Shown in pieces: positions 7,000 to 30,880 of a DNA stretch of 64,000 bases. Within the stretch, counting starts at the first letter, position 1. Every line of letters begins with the position of its first letter. Made by a program: the position numbers and the translations under genes. The stretch covers positions 14,075,834 through 14,139,833 of the forward strand of contig CM082579.2 of assembly GCA_040954595.2 (NCBI GenBank), in the 5' to 3' direction. The notes beneath the pieces are model-generated. The model was not told the origin of the DNA and did no database searches. It worked only from the letters and a program-made list of their open reading frames with translations. The stretch is from Balanoglossus misakiensis (Eukaryota > Animalia > Hemichordata).

Positions 7000-8772
7000 T
7001 TGGAAGGGACTGCTTTAAAAGATTATGTTAGAGAGGAACAAATTAGACAGAGGGATCTTAGGGCTACTGAGAGAGAGGAGCAGAGAGAAGATAATAGGCG
7101 GCGCGAGGAACATGAGAGAGAGATACTGAAAATGCAAATTCACTTACAAGAATTAAAATTGAAAGGGGAAAATACAGAACAGCAGGTTACTGAAAATAAT
7201 TTGGCCAAAGCGCGTGCTCCGAGACTACAGGGTTTACGTGAGGATGTTGATGATATGGATGCGTACCTTCAACGTTTTCAGCGCTACGCCACTGCTCAGA
7301 AGTGGGAAAAAGATGACTGGGGGTGAATCTCAGTGCATATTGTTACAAGGTAAGGATGTATCCACATACAACCAAATGCCTGCAGCGTCTGCAAATAATT
7401 ATGATGAATTGAAACCAGAGTTATTGAGGGCTTACCAGTTAAGTGAGGAGAGTTTTCATGACAAGTTCCGTTCGTGTATGCCACATTATGATGAAAGTGC
7501 TCAAAAGTTTATGGACCGTATTGGTGACTATTTGGGCAGATGGGTAGAACTGGCTGGTACTCCAAAGACGTACAATGGGCTTACAGATCTGTTACTTCGA
7601 GAGCAGTTTATTGGAGTATGTTCCAGAGACATGGCAATGTTCATTAGAGAGCGACGGCCAGAGAATGTCCAAGAGATGGTATCTACTGCCTCAAAATACT
7701 TAGATGCCCGAGGGTGGTGGAAACTGCCAAGTAATGCCAAGAATAATCCAAGGAGCCAGCCGACAGCAAATACCAAGCCTGCTGTATATCCAAATCAAGT
7801 AAATAAGTTTAATAACAAAACCAATGGTTCCCATGTTTTTAAAGGTACGTGCTTCGTATGTGGTAAAGGTGGTCATATGGCCAAAGATTGTAGAAGTAAG
7901 CCAAAGATGCATAAGACGGCGGTATTGTTAACTGAAGAAGATAGAAACTATCCACCTAAACAAGAATGTACACATTGGGGCAACCGTCGACAGCCCAGGG
8001 GACTAGACACTGGTTATGCATGTATGGTGGTAGCAATGGAAATAGATAAAACAGATGCAACACTGAATAAGGAGTTCGTGTTACCATGTGGTCATAAGCT
8101 CCCAGTGATGAGTGCTGCTTGTAGTGCCCATGGAGTGAAGAAGATGCCGGTAATGAAGGGATTGGTCGATGGTAAGCTGGTTAGCGTTTTGCGTGATAGT
8201 GGGTGTAGTAGCGTGGTAGTTCGAAGAAGTCTGGTGTCAAGTAATCAGCTGACTGGTGAGTACAGGACATGTGTTCTGATAGATGGGACTATTAGAAGAG
8301 TACCTGTAGCCTCTATAAAAGTTGATACCCCTTACTTTGTTGGTGATGTTACTGCACTGTGCATGATGAACCCTGTGTATGATTTAATACTGGGCAACAT
8401 TGATGGTGTATCTGACCCTTCGAATCCTGATACTACATGGCAGGAACCATTGCCGACATGTAGACTGTGTACAACTGTTGGACAGGTACCAGGTTTAGCA
8501 AATGCTGTGGAGACCAGAGCCCAGAAGATAGCCAACCAAAAACCAATCAGAGAGCTTAAAGTACCTAAAGCTGTTGGTGAAGTGGTGATGCCAGGGAAGC
8601 TTCAACAAGCTCAAGAAGAAGACTCCACTCTTGACAAACTACGTGAGAAGGCAATTTTGGGTGACGAGAAAGTGACTAGGAATGGAGGTAGGTTGAAGTT
8701 CATCATGAAAGATGGGATCCTGTACAGAGAGTTCAATTCGCCAATGGTCCAATTTGGTGAAAAGCTGTTACA
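7000..8772 (+). pseudogene. gag-pol: Gypsy gag-protease and start of the integrase region (frameshifted near 7320)
   Basis: DMDAYLQRFQRYA Gag N-terminus, capsid/SCAN-like LLLREQF, zinc knuckle CFVCGKGGHMAKDC, protease LRDSGCS, YDLILGN, and Q..D..L linker. The ORF-track C-terminus after 8772 is read-through into the insert. Confidence 0.88.
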
Positions 8773-8812
8773 CACTGCGGGAAATACTAGAGCTATGTTG
8801 GGCAGTATTCCG
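8773..8812 (+). repeat. Left bipartite terminal inverted repeat
   Basis: CACTGCGG + 18 nt + TGGGCAGTATT (8799-8809) + CCG. Confidence 0.88.
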
Positions 8813-8856
8813 CGAAGCGCGAGCTCCCATGTTCACCATAGCAACGCATTGCCAAG

Positions 8857-9507
8857 ATGGCGGCGCCCGTGTTGATCGATGCCGAGAAAGTTATAAAACG
8901 CAAATTGCGAGAGGCAAAATCTGTGCTTAAACGTAAAAAATGCGTGTCGGACAATCTGTATATACACCCACTCTTTGATGAACTTGAGGATGTGACAACA
9001 AGGGCCATATTTCGAAACGACAAGCTGTCAAAGGACAAGATTCGTTGGCGTGACGTCGCCGTATTTCCCATGTTTCAGCGTGATATGACCTACTGGCAGA
9101 AGACCTTCTACGCTCGGCTGTCAACATCCCCGTCGTTAAGGTCACCATGGCAAAGCAGCTTTACACAACAAATGCCGAGGGAAGTATTTGATGTTTTTCA
9201 TCAGTTTGCTACTCGGACCGGTTTTGGTATCGACGAGAAGACCTCCAGGGCTATCATAACCTTGACCTTCACAAGTTCCTCGAAGCTATTGTATGTGATA
9301 CGGAAAGGTTATTGCTACGAGGGCGCTATCGGTCAGCATACAGAGAATATCCTAGAGAAGAAAGTCCGTGGAAAGAGGGTAGCTGTTATATGCACACCTG
9401 AGAAGCCCTGTGTTGTGAAATATTTTATCAACAGGGAGACTGTTGCTGTTAGATTCAGCTTTGGTGCCTGGAACAAACATGGAATTCCATTACATCCAGA
9501 GAACTGA
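8857..9507 (+). CDS. Transposon-borne 216-aa basic protein of unknown function, convergent with the transposase
   Basis: Uninterrupted ORF in AT-rich DNA with a strong start context GCCAAGATGGCG, 84 bp from the left end. K/R-rich NLS-like N-terminus; AATAAA at ~9636. No kelch or PHD pattern. Confidence 0.72.
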   Translation: MAAPVLIDAEKVIKRKLREAKSVLKRKKCVSDNLYIHPLFDELEDVTTRAIFRNDKLSKDKIRWRDVAVFPMFQRDMTYWQKTFYARLSTSPSLRSPWQSSFTQQMPREVFDVFHQFATRTGFGIDEKTSRAIITLTFTSSSKLLYVIRKGYCYEGAIGQHTENILEKKVRGKRVAVICTPEKPCVVKYFINRETVAVRFSFGAWNKHGIPLHPEN

Positions 9508-10359
9508 ACCCTATTGATTTTTCACACTGATTCAACCCATCTGACGAACATTTTTTTCCTGATCTGTGGCACATGTTGTTCAGTGTAGATGTATCAGTCT
9601 GTCAAGACAGTTCTCTCACAATTGACATATATTCAAATAAAAAAAGGAAAATTAGAAGACTCAAAAATTCATCACTTGTCTTTATTTATCTACATTCAAT
9701 ACAAATGAACAGATAACGTTTACAAAATTTCCTAAACTGTAAAATTCTTTTTTTCCATCATTATTGTAACATAGATTTTTCATTAGTTTCAGAAAAAAAT
9801 GTATGTTACCTACAATCAACATTGATAAGTCAATCAAAACTGCTCATCTAACAGTTAACCAGGATTTCTGGTCTAAATTTAATTAATATTTACAATTAAT
9901 TCCATGACAAAATTTATAAATATCAAGAATTTGATGAGACTTAATTCTTTATTTTTTCACAAATTCATTAAAATTTCGTGCAGGTGCAGAATAAACAACT
10001 CCTCAAGAAAAATGTAAAACTTTTCTATCAAGCTTATGTATGTCATACATTTTAATTTTGCAAAGCACTGCAATCACTATACGATTAAGGGTTTATTCAC
10101 AATACTTAATAGTGGTAAGATAAGTTTCAATTTCCCTGTCCCCATACATGCACACATATACAAAATCCCATAAGAAACATATCATCTCCAGTTCAAAAAG
10201 TGTGAATTCATGTGATTTGTGATCTCCATTTTTATTAAATGCAGCTCTCAACTACACATGAGTCTTTGTAATTCTGTAATGTAATTAATACCATAGTTAT
10301 CCTTTAATTCTAAAGTAGCACACAGTGACACAATCCACTGTTTCAAATTCAATCATTGT

Positions 10360-12600
10360 TCACAGCATAAGTTTCTTGAGTTTATTTGATATTTTACCAG
10401 TGACAGCTGCTTTTTTTATGTCATCCATAATTGGGTCAACACATATTTCACAGGCAGTCATTGTTTCATTTTTCAAATTGCCACACATACAGTAGCCTGC
10501 ATTCTCATAATATCGACTGGGAATGTATTTTTCTTTTTCTTTAAGCTCAAATTGACCTACATTTGCCCTTCTATAGTTGTCAGCTTTTGGACTTTTGTTC
10601 CTCAGCCAAAAAAGCATCACATATTCGTGTCGAAATATGAGGGCCCACCTATTTTGAGGTGTAGAATTTTCACTGAATTCTAGCAGGCGTAGATGCTTTG
10701 CCTCTCTGCCTTCCATTGTGTTTAGGCCTAATCCCAGACTGAATTGCTTATAGATACTAGTGGTGTGTTTTGGGACTACATAACCAATGTGCCACACAGT
10801 ATTATTGACATTCAGAAACAGGGAATGTAGATTAAAGTACCACCGACACTTATGCCTAAGTACAAGCAAATCTCCCTCATTTATGTTGAATCGTGAGAAT
10901 AACAAAGTGATATCTCTAAGCAAGATACCAGTATATGTGTAGAGAGCTAATTGAGCCCGACGCTTTGGACTGTCTGTATCGCTTCTCAATGCTAATACCA
11001 ATCCCATGAAATGCCAAGCAAGTTTGCGAGACTCCTCACCAGTGAAGCGATAAACCACATTAATGTTGGCATTTGACTTGACACTATTTTCATTGAAGTA
11101 TTTTACAATCTTATTATACAACTTTCCAGCTTTTACTTGATATTTTAGGGCAGACAGGAATTTGTACAGATATGACTCGTTAGGTAGATTCTCAATTTTA
11201 ACTCCATTTTAACGACCCTTTTCCGAAGTGTGGGCAACTGCGTCAATCAGTAATCGTTGGAAGTAGTATTGCCATGCATTGTTCTTTAAATGCAATGGCT
11301 CAGCCTTGGCACAATCAATAAATCTACCCAACGGTGGTACAAATTCCTGTCTTGACCTCAGACTGGCTATAAATTGTGTGATTTTGGGTCGCACTGTTTT
11401 GGGCTTTCCAGTTTTAATTTTCTTAGTTGACTTCAACTTTTCAACAGCTTCTGCATCTTTAATTCTTTTCTGATATTTCCATTCATCCCACTTCTGACCT
11501 GGGCCAATTTCTGCTCCAATACAATCAATATCATTTTTGGAAACGTTAGCAAATGAGCTGAAATACTTTGCTGCATTGCTTAGTTCTCCAGACACACTGG
11601 CCAATCCCTTCTGATCAAAGGGTAAAAGTGACACCTGAAAAGTTACATCAAGACTGCCAACTTTATATTTACGTTTCTCAATACACTCAAGGTCTTTTGA
11701 CAATGCAATTGCAAATTCAATCATTATGGGGTCATCCTCTTTTATGTTTGCCCCTAATAGGAGAAAATTGTGGTCTGGGCTAGCAACACGGTGGGTCACA
11801 TTCAAGAAACTAACTAGCCATGCAGTGGCCTGTCCATGTTTGCCAAACGGAGCCCCGTCAGCACCTATACTGATTTGAAATGAGCCCTCCTGTTTACCGA
11901 ACCAGTTAAGAATATCAGGCTGTGTTTCCCCCATATTTAAATATAAACTGGCAATCTTAATAAGCAACTCCTCAGGGTTTCTTTTTAAGCCGACTTGTTT
12001 GCCTTCAGATGATATAATTGGCTCAAGATTTCCAATGTCAAGGTTACTTACATACTGTACAACTTTTGTGTATGGGAGCAGTCTTGGTATTCTACAGCCA
12101 GAATGAATTTCTAATGCTTTCCTAGGATGTTTCAAGTTGGAGAACATCTGAAGTTCACTCTGCCTCAGACAGTTATATTTTCGTTTGGATAGTACTCCGC
12201 CCTCATACATAGTTCTGACACTCCTCACCAAATTGTTCTCACTTTTCTCAAATTTACTGATGTATTTATCAAATACTGATGGCATTACTTTTTTACTGAT
12301 TTGGGGAGAGGTTCTGAAGTATGTTTTCATTTGGTCAGGAGTGGCAGAATTAACAAGAGTATACCACAAACCATCAAGTGCTGCTTTTGGTGGATGTAGT
12401 ACATTCGGTTTATTTATACCTTTGGCTGGGCTTACATCTGTAGTTGCTACATGAATATTTATGGCTGCTGATAAGGTTTCACACCTACGTTCATACTGTT
12501 GACGTCGCGACAGCTTCAAAGATTCACTATTATCTGCACATACTTCAGTGTTCTTGTGGACCCATTTAGAGCGTTTCACATTAACATCATCAACAGGAAT
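10360..12600 (-). pseudogene. RAG1/Transib/Chapaev-like DDE transposase, main exon (one in-frame TAA at 11209-11211)
   Basis: ORFs 11209-12579 and 10360-11121 share a frame and the gap translates openly. Motifs in RAG1 order: LSRRQQYERR, LSKRKY, IGADG (D 11857-59), FDQK (D 11614-16), EPLHLK, MEGREAKH (E 10702-04), C-terminal CxC...CxxC. Phase-0 acceptor TTTCAG at 12601. Confidence 0.85.
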
Positions 12601-12953
12601 CTGAAAGATTAAGTGTGTGATAAATATATACTAATTAGAATATAATCATTATATATAAAATAAAATCTTCTTACAAGTTAATCATTAATTTAAATGTCCT
12701 TGATAAGAAATACACACGTGTAGCCTGTATTTTTCTGACAACTTCTGCAATAAAAATCCTAAAAAATATATATAGTTTGTTGGAAAACCTAGATGTTTTG
12801 CATCAAAGCTGAACCCATTTTGTTATCATTGTTTACACAGGATCATGTGACATGAAGTTCAAAAAGCGAATTTGGGCTAAAATTTGAAGAGGATTTATAC
12901 AAATCTGAGATTTTTAAAATTATGACTAAGTCTATTTATCTGATGTAGCTTAC

Positions 12954-13393
12954 CTTTCTCTTATTATTCTTTGTAGCTAAGATCTCACAAATCTTACTGT
13001 TCTTCTTCTCTAGTCTAGCTGGGTTGAGGATCTTTTTACTAGTCTCCTAGCTGCACTCAACTTATTCAACTTATCCTGAATTATGCTTTCTTCCTCATCT
13101 CTCTTTCTCTTTCTCTGTCTACACCACTCTCCTAAGTTAAACCTGTGTTTAGTCTGTCCTCTCTTTGTTCTAACTACCAATAGGTTGTTGGCCACGCTCC
13201 CAGACAAAGATCTAGTCTTCAATTTCTCCTGATATAGTTGTTGCAAACACTTCTCTTCAGCTACCTGTCCCGCTATCTTTTGGTCCTTTGCCCACTGGCC
13301 TATGTTGAAGTAACTTTTCCCTTTTCTATTCGGCATAACAATAGACAAACTTTTAAGAAGTGCGCTACTCCTGTTGAATAGTTTGCCCCACAT
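12954..13393 (-). pseudogene. N-terminal coding exon of the transposase (frameshifted by a 5-bp duplication)
   Basis: ORF 13010-13426. Removing one TCTAG of the tandem at 13009-13018 extends it (LEKKNSKICEILATKNNKRK) to a phase-0 AG|GTAAG donor at 12954/12953, matching the 12601 acceptor. Start is ATG 13393 or 13336. Confidence 0.7.
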
Positions 13394-14201
13394 GGCTCTA
13401 AATCTATACCTGAAAAGGGTGAACAAGAGAAATATCTTTACAATAATTATCTATCCGAGGGAAGCAAAAACAAAACACCTGCTCATTATACTTCCTCCAG
13501 AAATTGAGGTCAAAGGTGACATAGAAAGAATGTGGGTAACCTTACCATAACAATCTCGCCCGTTCATTTTTTTCTTATTTCGTTTTCACCCTCGAATTTC
13601 CAGCGAATTATATCAAGAATATATTTTAGCACAAACTATTGGTTTCTGATTTTTCAGTTACGGTCTTATTTTCTGTCAATTCTATGAACAATATCACCAT
13701 GTCGCTGAAAATTCGAAGCGCCGCCATTACAATCAATGTAACCCGTGCTGCTGCCAAGGAACACACAGGGTCGTATATTTTCGCTTGGTATGATTTCGTC
13801 ATATTGCTTGTAGCAGCATTTTAAACATGGAATCCTATGTTTACGTATAAAAGACTAAATTCGTATGGTTTTCAAATTGAAAAAAACAATTCTGTGAAGC
13901 TGAATCGTTGTAATTTTTAGTGTTTGTTTATGGTTGCTTAGGACGGCTTCTGCTATAGCAACGGCCAGGGACTGTCAGCGGGTGATCAAAATGTTCAAGT
14001 TATTTGGCTGATACACATAAATAACACAGCAGAATCGCAACTTTATTTCATATTGTCTCTGACATCTTGCTAATTTTACTAAACAAAACTTGGAATAAAG
14101 CAATATTACTCACCGAATTATGCTGTGCATCGACAGCTGTGTTCGATCGCGAACGCCATTACTGTGTCTAATTAAATATTCATGAGCTTCATAGGCTGCC
14201 A

Positions 14202-14242
14202 CGGAAATACTGCCCATAGGTGGCGTCGTTCAAGCTGTAGTG
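14202..14242 (-). repeat. Right bipartite terminal inverted repeat
   Basis: Reverse complement reads CACTACAG + 18 nt + TGGGCAGTATT (14206-14216) + TCCG. Confidence 0.88.
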
Positions 14243-14245
14243 ACA

Positions 14246-15872
14246 GGTGGTGGTTCCCAGAGTGTATCGTAACCAGGTGATGAGACTAGCCCATGAATCA
14301 GTGCTGGGTGGTCACCACGGAACTCACAAGACCACAGACAAGATCCTCAGCAACTTCGTTTGGCCTGGGCTAACATCAGATGTTTCCCGTTACTGTCAGT
14401 CCTGTGATTCATGTCAACGGACACAACCAAAGGGACGGGTGACCAAGGTACCACTTGGAAGTATGCCACTAATAGATATCCCTTTCCTACGTATTGCAGT
14501 AGACCTGGTTGGCCCTATTCATCCATGCACTGAACGCAAGAATAGGTACATACTTACTGTTGTTGATTATGCAACACGCTATCCGGAGGCTGTTGCATTG
14601 ACTAACATTGATACCAAGACTGTTGCAGAGGCGCTCCTGGACATCTACTCAAGAGTGGGGTGTCCACGTGAAATTCTGACAGATCAAGGAACTCAATTTA
14701 CATCAGATGTGATGCGTGAGGTCAGCCGGCTTTTGTCTATAAAGCAGAAGACTACCACCCCATACCACCCAGCATTCAATGGTCTAGTGGAACGGTTCAA
14801 TGGTACATTGAAACTCATGCTCAGGAAGATGTGTGAGGAACGTCCAACATATTGGGATCGTTATCTGAATGCTTTACTATTTGCCTACAGAGAAACGCCT
14901 CAATCGAGCACAGGATTCTCTCCGTTTGAGTTACTTTATGGGAGGAGTGTGCGTGGTCCAATGGCTATCTTGAAAGAACTATGGACTGGAGAGATCAGTG
15001 AACCAGAAACCAAAACGACTTATCAATACATCCTTGATCTTCAAAAGAAATTAAAGAAGGCATGCGATTTAGCAAGACAAGAACTGAAGATATCACAAGG
15101 CAAATACAAGTCCTACTACAATAGAAAGGCCAAATGGAGGAAGTTCAACAAAGGTGACGAGGTGTTATTGCTACTACCTACTGACCATAATAAACTACTT
15201 ATGCACTGGAAGGGTCCTTTTCCAGTGGTGGAGAAAGCGAGCAATATGGATTACAAGATTGACTTTGGTCATAGGGTGAAAACATTCCATGCCAACCTGT
15301 TGAAGAGGTACTATCGAAGAACTGATCAGCTAGATGAAGTATCAGCTGGACTTCTTGAGATTGTGTGTGTATCTGTGATAGATGAGCAGAGTTATGAATC
15401 TTCAGAAGTACAAGAGAACACAGGGGTTAAAGTAAACGATGACTTACTGCGGGTTCCTGCATTCAAGCAGAAAGAATTTGCTGCAGATGTGAATGTATGT
15501 GACAACTTGTCAGACATACAGGAGCAAGTGGTGAGGAGGTTGCTGATCAATTACAAAAATATGTTAACTGATATTCGTGGTAACACCAACCTGGGTTTCC
15601 ATGACATCAAGTTGATGGATCCAACACCAGTATGCAGTAGGCCATACCCCATCCCTCATGCACTCCGTGAAGCAGTGAAAGATGAAGTCAAAACGATGAT
15701 TAAGATGGGAGTAGCTGAACCTTCAGAGAGTCCATATGCTGTTCCACTGGTAATGGTGAAGAAATCTGATGGGTCCAATCGTTGTTGTGTTGACATGAGA
15801 AAGCTCAATCGCATAACAGTGTTTGATGCAGAGCCTACACCAGACCTGAGTGAGCTTTTTGCTTTTTGCTAA
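14246..15872 (+). pseudogene. pol: Gypsy pol: integrase (HHCC, DDE core, GPF motif) followed by the RT N-terminus
   Basis: LAHESVLGGH...CQSCDSCQ, AVDLVGP, LTDQGTQF, NGLVERFN, WKGPF; then PYPIP, SPYAVPLVMVKK, CVDMRKLN. Confidence 0.92.
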
Positions 15873-16255
15873 GTTATCCAAGGATCACTATTTCACTAAA
15901 GTAGATCTCAGCAAAGAATATTGGCAAGTCCCGTTGACTGATAATTCTAAACAATTGACGGCATTTATCACGCATGATGGGCTATACCAATTTATCAAAA
16001 TGCCTTTCGGACTTGTAAATAGTGCTGCGACTTTTAGCAGAATTATGAGAAGATTGTTAAGAGATATGAAGAACGTAGACAACTATATCGATCACATACT
16101 GATCCACACTGCATCATGGGAAGAACATATCAAGACAATTACAGATTTGATGAGCAGACTACGAAAGGCAAAGTTAACAGCTAGACCAACTAAGTGTTAT
16201 GTGGGTTATGAGCAGATCGATTTCCTGGGTCATGTGGTTGGTCATGGTGAACTAG
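15850..16255 (+). pseudogene. pol: Gypsy reverse transcriptase core (frameshifted, catalytic motif mutated, truncated)
   Basis: DLSKEYWQV, MPFGL, YIDH (YIDD expected), FLGHVVG. The frameshift comes from a 7-bp tandem GCTTTTT duplication at 15854-15867. Confidence 0.9.
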
Positions 16256-16299
16256 TCCTGTTTCAAAATGACCTACATTACAGGTCGTATGCACACGTA

Positions 16300-16610
16300 T
16301 TACATGTTCTGATTGGTTTATCCACTTCTCTATGGTCCACTTGCGGCTCGCTGATTGGAGGGACCTTATGTGTTAGGTCTTATTACTATGTATTATTCAC
16401 CAGACCTTGTAGGTTAGGTCTTATTACAATGCATTATTCACTTTACAGCTCCCTGATTGGTTAATGTGTAGGTCTGGTCCTCCAGTGTTCACTGCCTCAT
16501 TATGCAGGACCTTGTAGGTTAGGTCTTATTAATATGTATTTATTCACCATACAGCTCCCTGATTGGTTAACGTGTCAGTCTGGTCCCCCCCAGTGTTCAC
16601 TGCCTCATTG
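16300..16610 (+). repeat. Degenerate ~105-bp tandem repeat at the Gypsy truncation point
   Basis: GACCTTGTAGGTTAGGTCTTATTA...CTCCCTGATTGGTTAA...CAGTGTTCACTGCCTCATT occurs twice, with partial copies upstream. Confidence 0.7.
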
Positions 16611-21703: not shown

Positions 21704-24700
21704 TTCACCCATGTTTTTTTTCAAAAATCGACGAACCCATAATTTTTTTCAAAATCGACGAAATTTTGAGATTTTGCAAAATCAAAAATTTGTCATTTTT
21801 TGATGATTTTCACCATGATTTTTTTCAAAAATCGACCAAATTTTGAGATTTTGCAGTCGAAAATTTGTAATTTTTTGATGATTTTCACCCATGTTTTTTT
21901 TTCAAAAATCGACGAACCCATGATTTTTTTCGAAATCGACGAAATTTTGAGATTTTGCATTCGAAAATTTGTCATTTTTTGATGATTTTCACCCATGATT
22001 TTTTTCAAAAATTGACGAACCCATAATTTTTTTCAAAATCGACGAAATTTTGAGATTTCGCAAAGTTGAAAATTTGACATTTGTTGATGATTTTCATGAG
22101 CTATATAGCCCATGATTTTTTTTTCAAAAATCGACGAACCCATGTTTTTTTTTCAAAAATCGACGATTTTTTGAGATTTCGCAAAGTTGAATATTTGACA
22201 TTTGTTGATGATTTTCATGAGGTATAGCCCATGATTTTTTTTTTCAAAAATCGACGAAATTTTGAGATTTGCAAAGTCGAACATTGGTCATTTTGATGAT
22301 TTTCACCCATTTTTTTTTTCAAAAATCGACGAACCCATGATTTTTTTCCAAAATCGACGAAATTTTGAGATTTTGCAAAGTCGAAAATTTGTCATTTTTT
22401 GATGATTTTCATCCATGTTTTTTTTCACAATTCAACGAACCCATGATTGTTTTCAAAATCGACGAAATTTTGAGATTTTGCAAGAACCCATGATTTTTTT
22501 CAAATTCGACGAAATTTTGAGATTTTGCAAAGTCGAAAATTTGTCATTTTTTGATGATTTTCACCCATGATTTTTTGCAAAAATCGACGAACCCATGATT
22601 TTTTTCCAAAATCGACGAAATTTTGAGATTTTGCAAAGTCGAAAATTTGTCATTTTTTGATGATTTTCATCCATGTTTTTTTTCAAAATTCAACGAACCC
22701 ATGATTTTTTTCAAAATCGACGAAATTTTGAGATTTTGCAAGAACCCATGATTTTTTTCAAAATCTCAAAATTTCGTCGATTTTGAAAAAAATCATGGGT
22801 TCGTCGATTTTTGAAAAAAAACATGGGAGAAAATCTTCAAAAAATGGGAATTTTGTCGATTTTTGAAAAAAAAAATCATGGGTGAAAATCATCAAAAAAT
22901 GACAAATTTTCGACTTTGCAAAATCTCAAAATTTCGTCGATTTTTGAGAAAAATCATGGGTGAAAATCATCAAAAAATGACAAATTTTCGACTTTGCAAA
23001 ATCTCAAAATTTCGTCGATTTTTGAAAAAAAACATGGATGAAAATCATCGAAAAATGACAAATTTTCGACTGCAAAATCTCAAAATTTCGTCGATTTTTG
23101 AGAAAAATCATGGGTGAAAATCATCAAAAAATGACAAATTTTCGACTTTGCAAAATCTCAAAATTTCGTCGATTTTTGAAAAAAAACATGGATGAAAATC
23201 ATCGAAAAATGACAAATTTTCGAAATTTTGAGATTTTGAAAAAAGTATGGGTTCGTCGATTTTTAAAAAAAATCATGGGTGAAAATCATCAAAAAATGAC
23301 AAATTTTCGACTTTGCAAGAACTTCGAGATTTTCGTCGATTTTTGAAAAAAAAAATCGTGGGGGGGGGGGAAATCATCAAAAAATGACAAATTTTCGACT
23401 TTGCAAAATCTCAATATATCGTCGATTTTGGAAAAAAAAAACATGGGTTCGTCGAAAAAAAACATGGGTGAAAATCATCAAAAAATGACATATTTTCGAC
23501 TTTGCAAAATCTCAAAAGTCCGTCGATTTTGAAAAAAAACATGGGTGAAAATCTTCAAAAAATGACAAATTTTCGACTTTGCAAAAACTCAAAATTTCGT
23601 CGATTTTTGAAAAAAAATGGGTGAAAATCATCAAAAATGACAAAGTTTCGACTTTGCAAAATCTCAAAATTTCATCGATTTCTGAAAAAAATCATAGGGG
23701 AAAATCATCAAAAAATGACAAATTTTCGACTGCAAAATCTTAAAATTTCGTCAATATTTGAAAAAAATCATGGGTAAAAATCATCAATAAATGAAAAATT
23801 TTCGACTTTGCAAAATCTCAAAATTTCGTCGATTTTTGAAAAAAATCATGGGTGAAAATCATCAAAAAATGACAAATTTTCGACTTTGCAAAATTTTCAA
23901 AAATTCGTCGATTTTTGAAAAAAAAATGGGTTATAGCTGATGAAAGTCATCAACAAATGACAAATTTTCGACTGCAAAATCTTAAAATTTCGTCGATTTT
24001 TGAAAAAAAACATGGATGAAAATCATCAAAAAATGACAAATTTTCGACTGCAAAATCTCAAAATTTTGTCGATTTTGAAAAAAGTATGGGTTCGTCGATT
24101 TTTAAAAAAAATCATGGGTGAAAATCATCAAAAAATGACAAATTTTCGACTTTGCAAGAACTTCGAGATTTTCGTCGATTTTTGAAAAAAAAAATCGTGT
24201 GGGGGGGGGGGGAAATCATCAAAAAATGACAAATTTTCGACTTTGCAAAATCTCAATATATCGTCGATTTTGGAAAAAAAAAACATGGGTTCGTCGAAAA
24301 AAAACATGGGTGAAAATCATCAAAAAATGACAAATTTTCGACTTTGCAAAATCTCAAAAGTCCGTCGATTTTGAAAAAAAACATGGGTGAAAATCTTCAA
24401 AAAATGACAAATTTTCGACTTTGCAAAAACTCAAAATTTCGTCGATTTTTGAAAAAAAATGGGTGAAAATCATCAAAAATGACAAAGTTTCGACTTTGCA
24501 AAATCTCAAAATTTCATCGATTTCTGAAAAAAATCATAGGGGAAAATCATCAAAAAATGACAAATTTTCGACTGCAAAATCTTAAAATTTCGTCAATATT
24601 TGAAAAAAATCATGGGTAAAAATCATCAATAAATGAAAAATTTTCGACTTTGCAAAATCTCAAAATTTCGTCGATTTTTGAAAAAAATCATGGGTGAAAA

Positions 24701-27700
24701 TCATCAAAAAATGACAAATTTTCGACTTTGCAAAATTTTCAAAAATTCGTCGATTTTTGAAAAAAAATGGGTTATAGCTTATGAAAGTCATCAACAAATG
24801 ACAAATTTTCGACTGCAATATCTTAAAATTTCGTCGATTTTTGAAAAAAAAACATGGATGAAAATCATCAAAAAATGACAAATTTTCGACTGCAAAATCT
24901 CAAAATTTTGTCGATTTTGAAAAAAGTATGGGTTCGTCGATTTTTAAAAAAAATCATGGGTGAAAATCATCAAAAAATGACAAATTTTCGACTTTGCAAG
25001 AACTTCGAGATTTTCGTCGATTTTTGTAAAAAAATGGGTGAAAATCATCAAAAATGACAAAGTTTCGACTTTGCAAAATCTCAAAATTTCATCGATTTCT
25101 GAAAAAAAATGGGTGAAAATCATCAAAAATGACAAAGTTTCGACTTTGCAAAATCTCAAAATTTCGTCGATTATTGAGAAAAATCATGGGTGAAAATCAT
25201 AAAAAAAATACAAATTTTCGGCTATGCAAAATCTCAAAATTTTGTCGATTTTTGAAAAAAAATCATGGGTTCGTTCAATTTTGAAAAAAAACATGGGTGA
25301 AAATCTTCAAAAAATGACAAATTTTCGACTTTGCAAAAACTCAAAATTTCGTCGATTTTTGAAAAAAAATGGGTGAAAATCATCAAAAATGACAAAGTTT
25401 CGACTTTGCAAAATCTCAAAATTTCATCGATTTCTGAAAAAAATCATAGGGGAAAATCATCAAAAAATGACAAATTTTCGACTGCAAAATCTTAAAATTT
25501 CGTCAATATTTGAAAAAAATCATGGGTAAAAATCATCAATAAATGAAAAATTTTCGACTTTGCAAAATCTCAAAATTTCGTCGATTTTTGAAAAAAATCA
25601 TGGGTGAAAATCATCAAAAAATGACAAATTTTCGACTTTGCAAAATTTTCAAAAATTCGTCGATTTTTGAAAAAAAAATGGGTTATAGCTGATGAAAGTC
25701 ATCAACAAATGACAAATTTTCGACTGCAAAATCTTAAAATTTCGTCGATTTTTGAAAAAAAAACATGGATGAAAATCATCAAAAAATGACAAATTTTCGA
25801 CTGCAAAATCTCAAAATTTTGTCGATTTTGAAAAAAGTATGGGTTCGTCGATTTTTAAAAAAAATCATGGGTGAAAATCATCAAAAAATGACAAATTTTC
25901 GACTTTGCAAGAACTTCGAGATTTTCGTCGATTTTTGAAAAAAAAAATCGTGTGGGGGGGGGGGGGAAATCATCAAAAAATGACAAATTTTCGACTTTGC
26001 AAAATCTCAATATATCGTCGATTTTGGAAAAAAAAAACATGGGTTCGTCGAAAAAAAACATGGGTGAAAATCATCAAAAAATGACAAATTTTCGACTTTG
26101 CAAAATCTCAAAAGTCCGTCGATTTTGAAAAAAAACATGGGTGAAAATCTTCAAAAAATGACAAATTTTCGACTTTGCAAAAACTCAAAATTTCGTCGAT
26201 TTTTGAAAAAAAATGGGTGAAAATCATCAAAAATGACAAAGTTTCGACTTTGCAAAATCTCAAAATTTCATCGATTTCTGAAAAAAATCATAGGGGAAAA
26301 TCATCAAAAAATGACAAATTTTCGACTGCAAAATCTTAAAATTTCGTCAATATTTGAAAAAAATCATGGGTAAAAATCATCAATAAATGAAAAATTTTCG
26401 ACTTTGCAAAATCTCAAAATTTCGTCGATTTTTGAAAAAAATCATGGGTGAAAATCATCAAAAAATGACAAATTTTCGACTTTGCAAAATTTTCAAAAAT
26501 TCGTCGATTTTTGAAAAAAAAATGGGTTATAGCTTATGAAAGTCATCAACAAATGACAAATTTTCGACTGCAATATCTTAAAATTTCGTCGATTTTTGAA
26601 AAAAAAACATGGATGAAAATCATCAAAAAATGACAAATTTTCGACTGCAAAATCTCAAAATTTTGTCGATTTTGAAAAAAGTATGGGTTCGTCGATTTTT
26701 AAAAAAAATCATGGGTGAAAATCATCAAAAAATGACAAATTTTCGACTTTGCAAGAACTTCGAGATTTTCGTCGATTTTTGTAAAAAAATGGGTGAAAAT
26801 CATCAAAAATGACAAAGTTTCGACTTTGCAAAATCTCAAAATTTCATCGATTTCTGAAAAAAAATGGGTGAAAATCATCAAAAATGACAAAGTTTCGACT
26901 TTGCAAAATCTCAAAATTTCGTCGATTATTGAGAAAAATCATGGGTGAAAATCATAAAAAAAATACAAATTTTCGGCTATGCAAAATCTCAAAATTTTGT
27001 CGATTTTTGAAAAAAAATCATGGGTTCGTTCAATTTTGAAAAAAAACATGGGTGAAAATCTTCAAAAAATGACAAATTTTCGACTTTGCAAAAACTCAAA
27101 ATTTCGTCGATTTTTGAAAAAAAATGGGTGAAAATCATCAAAAATGACAAAGTTTCGACTTTGCAAAATCTCAAAATTTCGAAAATTTGTCATTTTTTGA
27201 TGATTTTCACCCATGATTTTTTTCAAAAATCGACGAACCCATAATTTTTTTCAAAATCGACGAAATTTTGAGATTTCGCAAAGTTGAAAATTTGACATTT
27301 GTTGATGATTTTCATGAGCTATAGCCCATGATTTTTTTTTCAAAAATCGACGAACCCATGTTTTTTTTTCAAAAATCGACGATTTTTTGAGATTTCGCAA
27401 AGTTGAAAATTTGACATTTGTTGATGATTTTCATGAGGTATAGCCCATGATTTTTTTTTTCAAAAATCGACGAAATTTTGAGATTTGCAAAGTCGAACAT
27501 TGGTCATTTTGATGATTTTCACCCATTTTTTTTTTCAAAAATCGACGAACCCATGATTTTTTTTCAAAATCGACGAAATTTTGAGATTTTGCAAAGTCGA
27601 AAATTGGTCATTTTTTGATGATTTTCATCCATGTTTTTTTTTCACAATTCAACGAACCCATGATTGTTTTCAAAATCGACGAAATTTTGAGATTTTGCAA

Positions 27701-30700
27701 GAACCCATGATTTTTTTCAAATTCGACGAAATTTTGAGATTTTGCAAAGTCGAAAATTTGTCATTTTTTGATGATTTTCACCCATGATTTTTTGCAAAAA
27801 TCGACGAACCCATGATTTTTTTCCAAAATCGACGAAATTTTGAGATTTTGCAAAGTCGAAAATTTGTCATTTTTTGATGATTTTCATCCATGTTTTTTTT
27901 TCAAAATTCAACGAACCCATGATTTTTTTCAAAATCGACGAAATTTTGAGATTTTGCAAGAACCCATGATTTTTTTCAAAATCTCAAAATTTCGTCGATT
28001 TTGAAAAAAATCATGGGTTCGTCGATTTTTGAAAAAAAACATGGGAGAAAATCTTCAAAAAATGGGAATTTTGTCGATTTTTGAAAAAAAAAATCATGGG
28101 TGAAAATCATCAAAAAATGACAAATTTTCGACTTTGCAAGAACTTCGAGATTTTCGTCGATTTTTGAAAAAAAAAATCGTGGGGGGGGGGCGAAATCATA
28201 AAAAAATGACAAATTTTCGACTTTGCAAAATCTCAAAATATCGTCGATTTTGGAAAAAAAAACATGGGTTCGTCGAAAAAAAAACATGGGTGAAAATCAT
28301 CAAAAAATGACAAATTTTCGACTTTGCAAAATCTCAAAAGTCCGTCGATTTTGAAAAAAAACATGGGTGAAAATCTTCAAAAAATGACAAATTTTCGACT
28401 TTGCAAAAACTCAAAATTTCGTCGATTTTTGAAAAAAAATGGGTTAAAATCATCAAAAATGACAAAGTTTCGACTTTGCAAAATCTCAAAATTTCATCGA
28501 TTTCTGAAAAAAATCATAGGGGAAAATCATCAAAAAATGACAAATTTTCGACTGCACAATCTTAAAATTTCGTCAATTTTTGAAAAAAAATCATGGGTAA
28601 AAATCATCAATAAATGAAAAATTTTCGACTTTGCAAAATCTCAATATATCGTCGATTTTGGAAAAAAAAAACATGGGTTCGTCGAAAAAAAACATGGGAG
28701 AAAATCATCAAAAAATGACATATTTTCGACTTTGCAAAATCTCAAAAGTCCGTCGATTTTGAAAAAAAACATGGGTGAAAATCTTCAAAAAATGACAAAT
28801 TTTCGACTTTGCAAATACTCAAAATTTCGTCGATTTTTGAAAAAAAATGGGTGAAAATCATCAAAAATGACAAAGTTTCGACTTTGCAAAATCTCAAAAT
28901 TTCATCGATTTCTGAAAAAAATCATAGGGAAAAATCATCAAAAAATGACAAATTTTCGACTGCAAAATCTTAAAATTTCGTCAATATTTGAAAAAAATCA
29001 TGGGTAAAAATCATCAATAAATGAAAAATTTTCGACTTTGCAAAATCTCAAAATTTCGTCGATTTTTGAAAAAAATCATGGGTGAAAATCATCAAAAAAT
29101 GACAAATTTTCGACTTTGCAAAATTTTCAAAAATTCGTCGATTTTTGAAAAAAAAATGGGTTATAGCTTATGAAAGTCATCAACAAATGACAAATTTTCG
29201 ACTGCAAAATCTTAAAATTTCGTCGATTTTTGAAAAAAAAACATGGATGAAAATCATCAAAAAATGACAAATTTTCGACTGCAAAATCTCAAAATTTTGT
29301 CGATTTTGAAAAAAGTATGGGTTCGTCGATTTTTAAAAAAAATCATGGGTGAAAATCATCAAAAAATGACAAATTTTCGACTTTGCAAGAACTTCGAGAT
29401 TTTCGTCGATTTTTGAAAAAAAAATCGTGGGGGGGGGGCGAAATCATAAAAAAATGACAAATTTTCGACTTTGCAAAATCTCAAAATATCGTCGATTTTG
29501 GAAAAAAAAAACATGGGTTCGTCGAAAAAAAAACATGGGTGAAAATCATCAAAATATGACAAATTTTCGACTTTGCAAAATCTCAAAAGTCCGTCGATTT
29601 TGAAAAAAAACATGGGTGAAAATCTTCAAAAAATGACAAATTTTCGACTTTGCAAAAACTCAAAATTTCGTCGATTTTTGAAAAAAAATGGGTTAAAATC
29701 ATCAAAAATGACAAAGTTTCGACTTTGCAAAATCTCAAAATTTCATCGATTTCTGAAAAAAATCATAGGGGAAAATCATCAAAAAATGACAAATTTTCGA
29801 CTGCACAATCTTAAAATTTCGTCAATTTTTGAAAAAAAATCATGGGTAAAAATCATCAATAAATGAAAAATTTTCGACTTTGCAAAATCTCAAAATTTCG
29901 TCGATTTTTGAAAAAAATCATGGGTGAAAATCATCAAAAAATGACAAATTTTCGACTTTGCAAAATTTTCAAAAATTCGTTGATTTTTGAAAAAAAAATG
30001 GGTTATAGCTTATGAAAATCATCAACAAATGACAAATTTTCGACTTTGCAAAATCTCAAAATTTCGTCGATTTTGAAAAAAATCATGGTTTCGTCGATTT
30101 TTGAAAAAAAACATGGGTGAAAATCTTCAAAAAATGACAAATTTTCGACTTTGCAAAAACTGAAAATTTCGTCGATTTTTGAAAAAAATAATGGGTGAAA
30201 ATCATCAAAAAAGACAAAGTTTCGACTTTGCAAAATCTCAAAATTTTGTCGATTTCTGAAAAAAATCATGGGTAAAATCGTCAAAAAAATGACAGATTTT
30301 CGACAGCAAAATCTTAAAATTTCGTCAAATTTTGAAAAAAAATCATGGGTAAAAATCATCAAAAAATGACAAATTTTCGACTTTGCAAAATCTCAAAATT
30401 TCGTCAATTTTTGAAAAAAAAATCGTGGGGGGGGGGGAAATCATCAAAAAAATGACAAATTTTCGACTTTGCAAAATTTTGAAAAATTCGTCGATTTTAA
30501 AAAAAAAACATGGGTTCGTCCATTTTTGAAAAAAAAAAACATGGGTGAAAATCATCAACAAATGACAAATGTTCAACTTTGCAAAATCTCAAAATTTCGT
30601 CGATTTTTGAAAAAAAAAATCGTGGGGGGAGGTAAATCATCAAAAAAATGACAAATTTTCGACTTTGCATAATTTTCAAAAATTCGTCGATTTTTGAAAA

Positions 30701-30880
30701 AAAAAACATGGGTTCGTCCATTTTTGAAAAAAAAAACATGGGTGAAAATCATCAACAAATGACAAATGTTCAACTTTGCAAAATCTCAAAATATTGTCGA
30801 TTTTTGAAAAAAAAACATGGGTTCGTCGATTTTTGAAAAAAAAAAACATGGGTGAAAATCGTCAAAAAATGACACATTTT
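21704..30880. repeat. 78-bp satellite, left array, mostly A-rich orientation with two inverted blocks
   Basis: T-rich orientation ~21704-22760 and ~27180-27975; A-rich orientation ~22760-27180 and ~27976-30880. Confidence 0.95.

Follow-up and report, generated by a model that had tools for sequence, protein, structure and literature searches.

A small basic protein gene kept beside a transposase of predicted RAG1-like fold in a two-gene transposon of the hemichordate Balanoglossus misakiensis

We describe a two-gene transposon in a 64,000-nucleotide stretch of the genome of the hemichordate Balanoglossus misakiensis (assembly GCA_040954595.2, contig CM082579.2, positions 14,075,834 to 14,139,833 of the forward strand; hereafter the window, in whose numbering coordinates are given). 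The element is a cut-and-paste transposon of 5,470 bp (8773-14242, termini CAC...GTG) in which a transposase gene is accompanied by a second gene, ORF216; we refer to the family of this second open reading frame (ORF) as ORF2. Purifying selection has preserved the second gene, always at the same place and in the same orientation, next to a transposase whose predicted fold is that of RAG1. We hold it somewhat probable that this conserved gene codes for a small basic protein which serves as an accessory subunit and assists the transposase in recognising or pairing the transposon ends. A cut-and-paste transposon with an accessory gene is of a known kind; the pair itself is undescribed in the literature that we found, and the ORF2 family already bears a Pfam number.

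Results

Conservation of the second gene beside the transposase

Scanning metagenome contigs with the transposase alignment yielded 80 loci, and an ORF216 homologue is present in 35 of these, with tblastn (best E=2.4e-22, 31% identity) and the family hidden Markov model in agreement. All 35 homologues lie downstream of the transposase and on the opposite strand, the median gap between the end of the transposase match and the ORF2 frame being 853 nt. Counted by the length of the downstream flank, ORF2 is present in 35 of 43 loci with at least 1000 bp, in 32 of 34 with at least 1500 bp, a flank long enough for the neighbourhood check that an initial annotation of this DNA had proposed, and in 22 of 23 with at least 2000 bp. 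The frames are uninterrupted in 30 of the 35 loci; four carry one internal stop and one is cut by the end of its contig. The transposases that carry this partner are only 35-45% identical to one another.

The comparison of substitution rates that had likewise been proposed points to constraint on the second gene. Between the ORF2 frames of loci L008 and L038, dS is 0.18 and dN is 0.059 (dN/dS, or omega, 0.33), and L004 compared with L038 gives an omega of 0.52; in deep pairs, the proportions of synonymous and non-synonymous differences are 0.76-0.91 (pS) and 0.26-0.43 (pN), respectively. Very close pairs carry too few changes to judge (L036 and L071, for example, are separated by one synonymous and five non-synonymous changes). 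Between elements, ORF2 is under purifying selection, with omega at 0.3-0.5. Furthermore, the distances among ORF2 proteins follow those among the transposases across 17 elements (Mantel r 0.93, with 0 of 5000 permutations as high; Spearman 0.58).

ORF216 had initially been called an orphan, and this description no longer holds. When 1.84 billion representatives were scanned exhaustively with phmmer, 75 representative clusters reached E<=1e-3, and 11 of these E<=1e-10 (best 4.4e-17); 72 of the 75 representative hits are 90-300 amino acids (aa) long, and nearly all are stand-alone proteins. All 20 proteins found with an ORF2 profile bear the precomputed Pfam accession PF26709 (PF26709.1). A word-indexed homologue search with ORF216 alone gave no relative among 87 candidates, and a search of the ESM Atlas with the family member P0123 gave no usable hit; the relatives emerged only through tblastn on transposase-anchored loci, the profile and the exhaustive scan. 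We found no paper on PF26709 and no description of this gene pair in the literature, Repbase/Dfam and InterPro lying outside the search. The two-gene family occurs in a hemichordate-like genome and in cnidarian-type sequences.

These observations bear on the possibility that ORF216 is a passenger, that is, a captured fragment of a host gene or a chance frame. Such an origin would fit the lack of a recognisable domain in the Pfam library searched and the exclusively non-synonymous differences between two haplotypes of ORF216 considered below, as well as the existence of a 613-aa protein (P0206) in which three Tau/MAP tubulin-binding repeats (Pfam E=6.6e-40) are joined to an ORF2-type domain at residues 459-609, although the latter is probably a gene model that swallowed a transposon ORF2, or an exonisation. 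Against it stand the recurrence of the gene in the same place and orientation beside transposases so divergent from one another, the co-divergence of the two genes, an omega well below 1, a start codon at a fixed distance from the terminus, and the size of the representative hits. We consider a passenger very improbable and the idea largely refuted. The initial annotation had named a lack of homologues, a dN/dS near 1, or identity with a captured host-gene fragment as outcomes that would speak against its proposal; what was found is a family with many members, constrained between elements, in which the second gene belongs to the element and recurs beside related transposases.

The transposase family and its fold

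Of 7,995 candidates scored against exon 2 of the transposase gene in the window, with its internal stop read as X, 316 proteins reach E<=1e-3. The closest relative is a Ptychodera flava protein (P0003, 75% identity), the remainder being 36-45% identical; named relatives include proteins of Nematostella, Acropora, Porites, Actinostola and Dendronephthya, and none has a Pfam domain. The AlphaFold model of P0003, built on a 40-sequence alignment, has a predicted local distance difference test score (pLDDT) of 89.3 and a predicted template modelling score (pTM) of 0.87. Foldseek returned 49 PDB matches to this model at E<=1e-3, and those listed are RAG1, HzTransib and BbRAGL. The RAG1 chains reach a best E of 5.9e-12 over 620-716 columns, with template modelling (TM) scores of 0.41-0.53 when normalised by query length and as high as 0.64 by target length, while HzTransib is found at 7.8e-7 and amphioxus BbRAGL at 1.8e-6; the listed matches span about 570-720 columns, and the P element transposase comes next in the list at 5e-3. 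Because no CMC-type structure is among the matches listed, we place P0003 in the wider RAG1/Transib/CMC fold group and not in Transib proper. ORF216 had been said to occupy the “RAG2 position”, and the expression is apt, in that the gene runs tail-to-tail with that of a transposase for which the model of a close relative matches RAG1/Transib.

At the level of sequence, a search of the PDB with phmmer and both transposase halves gave 0 hits at E<=1, a 25-sequence transposase profile found neither RAG1 nor Transib there at E<=10, and a Pfam scan found neither the RAG1 family nor CACTA-type domains. Three acidic residues, D181, D262 and E566, are invariant in 40 transposase sequences, and we infer that they are equivalent to the catalytic residues of RAG1. 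An LH motif (EPLHL.NN) has H370 in 39 of the 40 sequences, and H540-x4-H545 is present in 25 of the 40, the window protein and P0003 carrying Y at position 540. No C(2)C motif was seen, since no column from D262 to 398 has Cys in at least 30% of the 40 sequences and YFSSFANV stands at the expected place; a C-x-C...C-x2-C cluster lies near the C-terminus.

Organisation of the element

The features of the element in the window are as follows.

8770-8772, no strand: target-site duplication, left copy ACA; the same ACA stands at 14243-14245
8773-8856, plus strand: left terminal region, with the terminus CACTGCGGG, the block TGGGCAGTATT that is also present at the right end, and the ORF216 5' leader
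8854-8862, plus strand: putative YY1-type motif AAGATGGCG, overlapping the ORF216 start codon; the single match in the window
8857-9507, plus strand: ORF216 (ORF2), second gene of the element; 216 aa, isoelectric point (pI) 9.9, intact frame
9508-10359, no strand: AT-rich spacer between the convergent genes, 852 nt
9636-9641, plus strand: putative polyadenylation-type signal AATAAA, 129 nt past the ORF216 stop
10360-12600, minus strand: transposase exon 2, 746 codons plus stop; in-frame TAA at 11209-11211
12601-12953, minus strand: predicted intron, GT...AG, phase 0, read from the sequence; donor GT at 12953-12952, acceptor AG at 12602-12601
12954-13393, minus strand: transposase exon 1; premature TAG at 13010-13012 from a 4-nt difference
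13394-14242, minus strand: right terminal region and transposase 5' region, ending ...CTGTAGTG; ATGGCG core 84 nt from the tip
14243-14245, no strand: target-site duplication, right copy ACA, as read in the sequence

The ends were placed by aligning the left end to the reverse-complemented right end and by the end of a diverged copy. The terminal sequences are CACTGCGGG at 8773 and ...CTGTAGTG ending at 14242, and the diverged left-end copy, found in contigs of the same organism, starts CACTACGGG (loose end at 8798). A left end at 8771 (CACACTG) was tried and dropped, as it gave no duplication and the diverged copy and the right end both lead to 8773. The 3-bp target-site duplication fits because the pol frames of the host element share phase across one ACA.

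Between these ends, the transposase gene (minus strand, two exons, about 894 aa) lies tail-to-tail with ORF216 at a distance of 852 nt. The ORF216 ATG is 84 nt inside the left end of the transposon, an in-frame stop lies upstream at 8839-8841, and the start context GCCAAGATGGCG has A at -3 and G at +4; with the AATAAA downstream, the clean frame and strong start first read here both stand.

In the related loci, a CACGCYGG-type terminus (CACGCYGGG) lies 70-116 nt upstream of the ORF2 ATG in 21 of 30. The 3-bp flanks are equal in four of nine relatives (L065 AGC, L027 ATT, L009 TTA, L057 AAT) and mismatch in the other five (L007, L011, L017, L023, L042), where it should be kept in mind that metagenome repeat contigs may be chimeric. 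L007, L009, L010, L011 and L014, which form one family, have the same sequence outside the transposase-side CAC terminus (...GCTGCTTAATTA) and differ outside the ORF2-side terminus; either the true end lies further out or these are chimeric assemblies. Many relatives have, between the terminus and the ORF2 start, a block (G)TCAGCGG(T) that lies some 20-40 nt before the ATG, and TGGGCAGTATT holds a similar place at both ends of the element in the window.

In the same sample, one contig of 1,123 nt aligns at about 82% to 8798-8911, which comprises the left terminal region and the opening 55 nt of ORF216; after this it matches only 9458-9505, the remainder being unlike the element. It is a relative within this genome that has either diverged or lost internal sequence.

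The predicted ORF216 protein

The AlphaFold model of ORF216 (33-sequence alignment; pLDDT 81.9, pTM 0.67) has helices at residues 3-26, 33-52 and 60-87, followed by a beta-alpha-beta-beta-alpha-beta4 domain at residues 99-205. Its C-terminal half, with seven strands and two helices, forms a compact alpha/beta domain, and the N-terminus is KRK-rich, with a basic stretch KRKLREAKSVLKRKK at residues 14-28; a basic N-terminus and a beta-rich C-terminal half had both been recognised by eye. The family is basic throughout (pI about 9-10, at least 8.9 in 29 of 33 members). Its conserved positions are mainly aromatic or hydrophobic, together with W...RR(L/M), NPW, LP.E(I/V)F and a C-terminal YG.WN..G.P.H, and its alignment holds no conserved Cys/His set, acidic cluster, or catalytic or metal-binding motif.

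Searching ORF216 against Pfam gave 0 families at E<=10, with no Kelch, PHD or Myb/SANT domain, and likewise none of 18 ORF2 alignment members and none of five profile hits matched the library searched, which has no PF26709 model. With no Kelch or PHD match and a modelled fold that differs, ORF216 is not RAG2-like, as had been judged at the outset. Of the structural approach suggested at that stage, the modelling gave a fold and the search gave no convincing solved match among the rows listed: Foldseek of the whole model against the PDB has a best E of 0.048. A BFVD match to the model (E 9.7e-4) was rejected, with a TM score of 0.17 and a root-mean-square deviation of 17.5, as were rows for the IRF3 DNA-binding domain among PDB sequences (E=1.6), which comprise two non-collinear stretches. 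The ORF2 profile found nothing below E=0.5 among PDB sequences. A complex prediction for P0003 with ORF216, made with alignments unused and the partner fold uncertain, scored 0.00 and counts neither for nor against binding.

These searches also bear on the possibility that ORF2 is a regulator and not a catalytic cofactor: it might inhibit transposition or control its dosage, or it might counteract silencing by binding small RNAs or silencing proteins of the host. In a feature search of the ESM Atlas, all ten best named hits are Argonaute N / L1 / PAZ clusters (score 0.93, 151 of 256 shared features), and several SPARTA TIR-APAZ chains are among the weak Foldseek rows of ORF216 (probability 0.2-0.4); the conservation and co-divergence of ORF2 would in any case fit any function that benefits the element, that of a regulator included. 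However, the recognition value in the Atlas is low (1431), ten concordant hits arise for a third of shuffled proteins, and same-family hits usually share at least 170 features. Likewise, the Pfam search of ORF216 found no PAZ, ArgoN or ArgoL1 at E<=10, the ORF2 profile found no Argonaute among PDB sequences, and the APAZ rows have TM scores of at most 0.18. We regard a regulator as unlikely.

It is also worth considering that ORF2 might serve as a nuclear-import or chaperone adaptor for the transposase, a role like that of the Myb-like protein in PIF/Harbinger, with no sequence-specific binding of the ends. A lysine/arginine-rich N-terminus and the basic character of the family are what such an adaptor might be expected to have, and the ends of the element in the window show no repeated subterminal motifs. 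However, the KRK-rich stretch falls in the poorly conserved N-terminal part of the family, and the transposase has a basic N-terminus of its own (RKRKRD in exon 1; MARKGRAKR in the L007 family). On balance, an adaptor of this kind seems improbable to us.

A YY1-type motif at the ORF2 start codon

A YY1-type motif, AANATGGCG, lies across the ORF2 start codon in 15 of 15 non-redundant elements. Within it, AA-N-ATGGCG is invariant in all 15 and is followed by G and C in 12 of 15 each, the Ala codon always being GCG. Over the 35 positive loci, the motif is found at the ORF2 5' end in 29 (24 within a narrow interval and five at an ATG inside a longer open frame), whereas its background is 0.07 matches per kb per strand. 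Read in reverse complement, the start-codon motif gives the YY1 motif CGCCATNTT, and in the element studied here CAAGATGGC at 8853-8861 is the exact reverse complement of GCCATCTTG, the TR5 element of ProtoRAG. As described for ProtoRAG, TR5 is present in both terminal inverted repeats, binds YY1, and matters for RAG1L/RAG2L transcription and for recombination (PMC7481187). Judging by these letters, a YY1-type factor would bind at AA-N-ATGGCG. Part of this pattern could be due to selection for the start of translation and for a Met-Ala N-terminus, which would leave the fixed GCG unaccounted for.

On the transposase side, GCCAT-type cores lie 16-92 nt from the tip in the window's element and in five of nine loci checked, and AAGATGGCA is found at the transposase ATG in three more loci of one family. 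At the right end in the window (14113-14159, minus strand), an ATGGCG lies 84 nt from the tip, matching the distance of the ORF216 start from the left tip; behind it come a frame of 13 codons, a stop and a donor-like GGTGAGT. The terminal region may contain a short first exon of the transposase gene, either non-coding or holding an upstream ORF.

Lesions in the transposase gene and a second haplotype

A second version of the insertion is provided by contigs from two DNA runs of one sample, which span both of its junctions. This second haplotype or assembly differs from the window by about 0.45% (10 differences in 2,205 nt). An A>C change at 11211 turns the TAA of exon 2 into GAA, and CTAG inserted behind 13014 gives an exon 1 of 444 nt (148 codons) that is open to the splice donor. 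Both transposase lesions are hence private to the window haplotype. The same contigs show single-base length differences in the T runs at 10468 and 11541, possibly errors on either side. As the second haplotype is without both lesions, we take this insertion to be very young.

The intact frame of ORF216 beside a lesioned transposase gene had been pointed out in the initial annotation. Both lesions are indeed present in the window, but an argument from this contrast fails, as the copy is too young and the transposase is a mutational target about four times longer than ORF216.

In exon 1 (13010-13393, minus strand), the motif (F)N(I/L)G(Q/E)W...Q(K/R) occurs twice, and the exon has a weak, sub-threshold likeness to the helicase-associated (HA) domain (E=2.3e-4, 21.8 bits, cut-off 28.4). 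In the L007 family, RFPIGDYKYA after the transposase start resembles this motif. The HA-like repeat region may be the DNA-binding part of the transposase.

Host site and surroundings

The site of insertion is the pol of a long terminal repeat (LTR) retrotransposon, which the transposon splits (7163-8772 and 14246-16464). The polyprotein of this host element has the order gag, protease, integrase, reverse transcriptase, with integrase before reverse transcriptase: a SCAN-like gag with a zinc knuckle and the protease reach to about 8772, the zinc-binding and core domains of integrase, then reverse transcriptase, restart at about 14246, and a further frame break follows after 15872. Among contigs of the same sample, no joint across the insertion was found at 80% likeness, only the one diverged left-end relative. 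Beyond the retrotransposon, a 78-bp AT-rich satellite (unit ACCCATGATTTTTTTCAAAAATCGACGAAATTTTGAGATTTTGCAAAGTCGAAAATTTGTCATTTTTTGATGATTTTC) makes up about 40 kb of the window from 21735 to 64000, and periods of higher order appear in it at about 104-106, 155, 184 and 262 nt; its block at 22849-30874 runs opposite to that at 33735-64000.

Discussion

Taken as an accessory subunit, ORF216 would work as follows. Transcription would start in the terminal ~85 nt, at the YY1-type initiator lying across the ATG. By way of its KRK-rich N-terminus the protein would reach the nucleus, and it would bind DNA, the transposase, or both; it might pair up through its helical region (residues 3-87), and it would be needed for efficient excision and integration. 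Such a role would be comparable to those of RAG2L in ProtoRAG, TnpA in En/Spm and the Myb-like protein of Harbinger, although ORF216 is unrelated to any of these.

It is informative to compare the element with the systems that it most resembles. ProtoRAG has 5-bp duplications and carries RAG1L and RAG2L tail-to-tail between terminal inverted repeats that hold a YY1 site, according to the account available to us (PMC7481187). The element described here shares with ProtoRAG and the RAGL group the two tail-to-tail genes between terminal inverted repeats, a transposase whose model matches the RAG1 and BbRAGL fold, termini that begin with CAC, and a putative YY1-type site in the terminal region, where CAAGATGGC is the reverse complement of TR5 (GCCATCTTG). 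In contrast, its duplication is 3 bp and not 5 bp, RAG1 is undetected at the sequence level by single sequences or by the family profile, its transposase family has no C(2)C zinc motif, and its partner protein is one of about 210 aa with helices and an alpha/beta domain, as opposed to a six-bladed kelch propeller with a PHD. The element is not a member of Transib/RAGL, either by its 3-bp duplication or by sequence.

Chapaev elements are described as having duplications of 3-4 bp, termini that are invariably CAC...GTG, and the motifs C(2)C, LH and H(4)H (PMC4079192), and CA...TG termini and 2-5 bp duplications are described as common to the “CMCT” clade of EnSpm, Mirage, Chapaev and Transib (PMC12730594), the duplication being 3 bp in EnSpm. 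With Chapaev/EnSpm the present element shares its CAC...GTG termini, the 3-bp duplication and the invariant D, D and E; of the other motifs, LH stands in 39 of 40 sequences of its transposase family and H-x4-H in 25 of 40, the window protein not among the latter. It differs in having no C(2)C in the interval from the second D to the E and no Pfam CACTA-type domains, in the N-terminus, where no Chapa-type cysteine-rich region was seen and exon 1 has the weak HA-like repeat instead, and in its separate convergent second gene. The element is thus Chapaev/EnSpm-like by its ends and RAG1-like by its fold, and judged by C(2)C it falls within neither group as these are defined.

Two-component logic of the kind proposed is also found elsewhere. 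In PIF/Harbinger elements, a DDE transposase works with a small Myb-like DNA-binding or import partner; that arrangement would be shared if ORF2 is such a partner, but the transposase there is of an unrelated fold and family, and ORF2 has no Myb/SANT match. En/Spm needs TnpA beside TnpD, TnpA being modelled as a dimer whose positively charged globular domain bridges the ends, as far as described in PMC13547354. There too an accessory protein stands beside a CMC-type transposase, and ORF2 is also basic, with a helical region and a globular domain; TnpA, however, is produced by alternative splicing or by a head-to-tail gene, ORF2 by a convergent one.

Several observations weigh against an accessory subunit that acts on the transposon ends. 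At neither end of the element in the window does any short motif occur three or more times in the outermost 260 nt, in contrast to the subterminal repeats to which TnpA binds. The modelled fold gives no functional clue, because it is an alpha/beta domain without a convincing solved relative. Every related locus was recovered through the transposase, so that the sampling is one-way; L028 and L069 have at least 1.8 kb after the transposase without ORF2, and six more loci lack it within 1.0-1.5 kb of flank, which is possibly too short. ORF2 evolves faster than the transposase (mean p-distance 0.75 as compared with 0.58). Finally, the two haplotypes differ in ORF216 at three sites, all of them non-synonymous and at second codon positions (Q104R, S142L, C179F); with three of three changes non-synonymous, this copy is drifting neutrally, and since it is young and drifting, the intactness of ORF216 here says little about selection.

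A bolder proposal is worth stating, although we think it rather doubtful. It is that hemichordates and cnidarians harbour an undescribed two-subunit sister lineage of RAG/Transib, in which a small basic protein, of a fold for which no solved relative was found, is the obligatory partner of a RAG1-fold transposase in the RAG2 slot and both genes are driven from YY1-type sites in the ends. If this were true, a design consisting of a RAG1-like enzyme, a convergent cofactor and host YY1 would predate RAG2 or would have arisen more than once, and this clade of transposases would have recruited several interchangeable partners, RAG2 among them.

For a protein family that so far apparently bears only a Pfam accession, these results offer a likely role. 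They also touch on the origin of V(D)J recombination, where the way in which RAG1 became dependent on RAG2 is still to be explained. The element described here provides a natural comparison, namely a widespread relative with the RAG1/Transib fold that has a different conserved partner in the same tail-to-tail slot and a ProtoRAG-type YY1 motif. Because the copy in the window is very young and the cnidarian relatives keep intact gene pairs, the system should suit ordinary transposition assays, and the comparison would allow dependence on a partner to be tested as a general property of this transposase clade.

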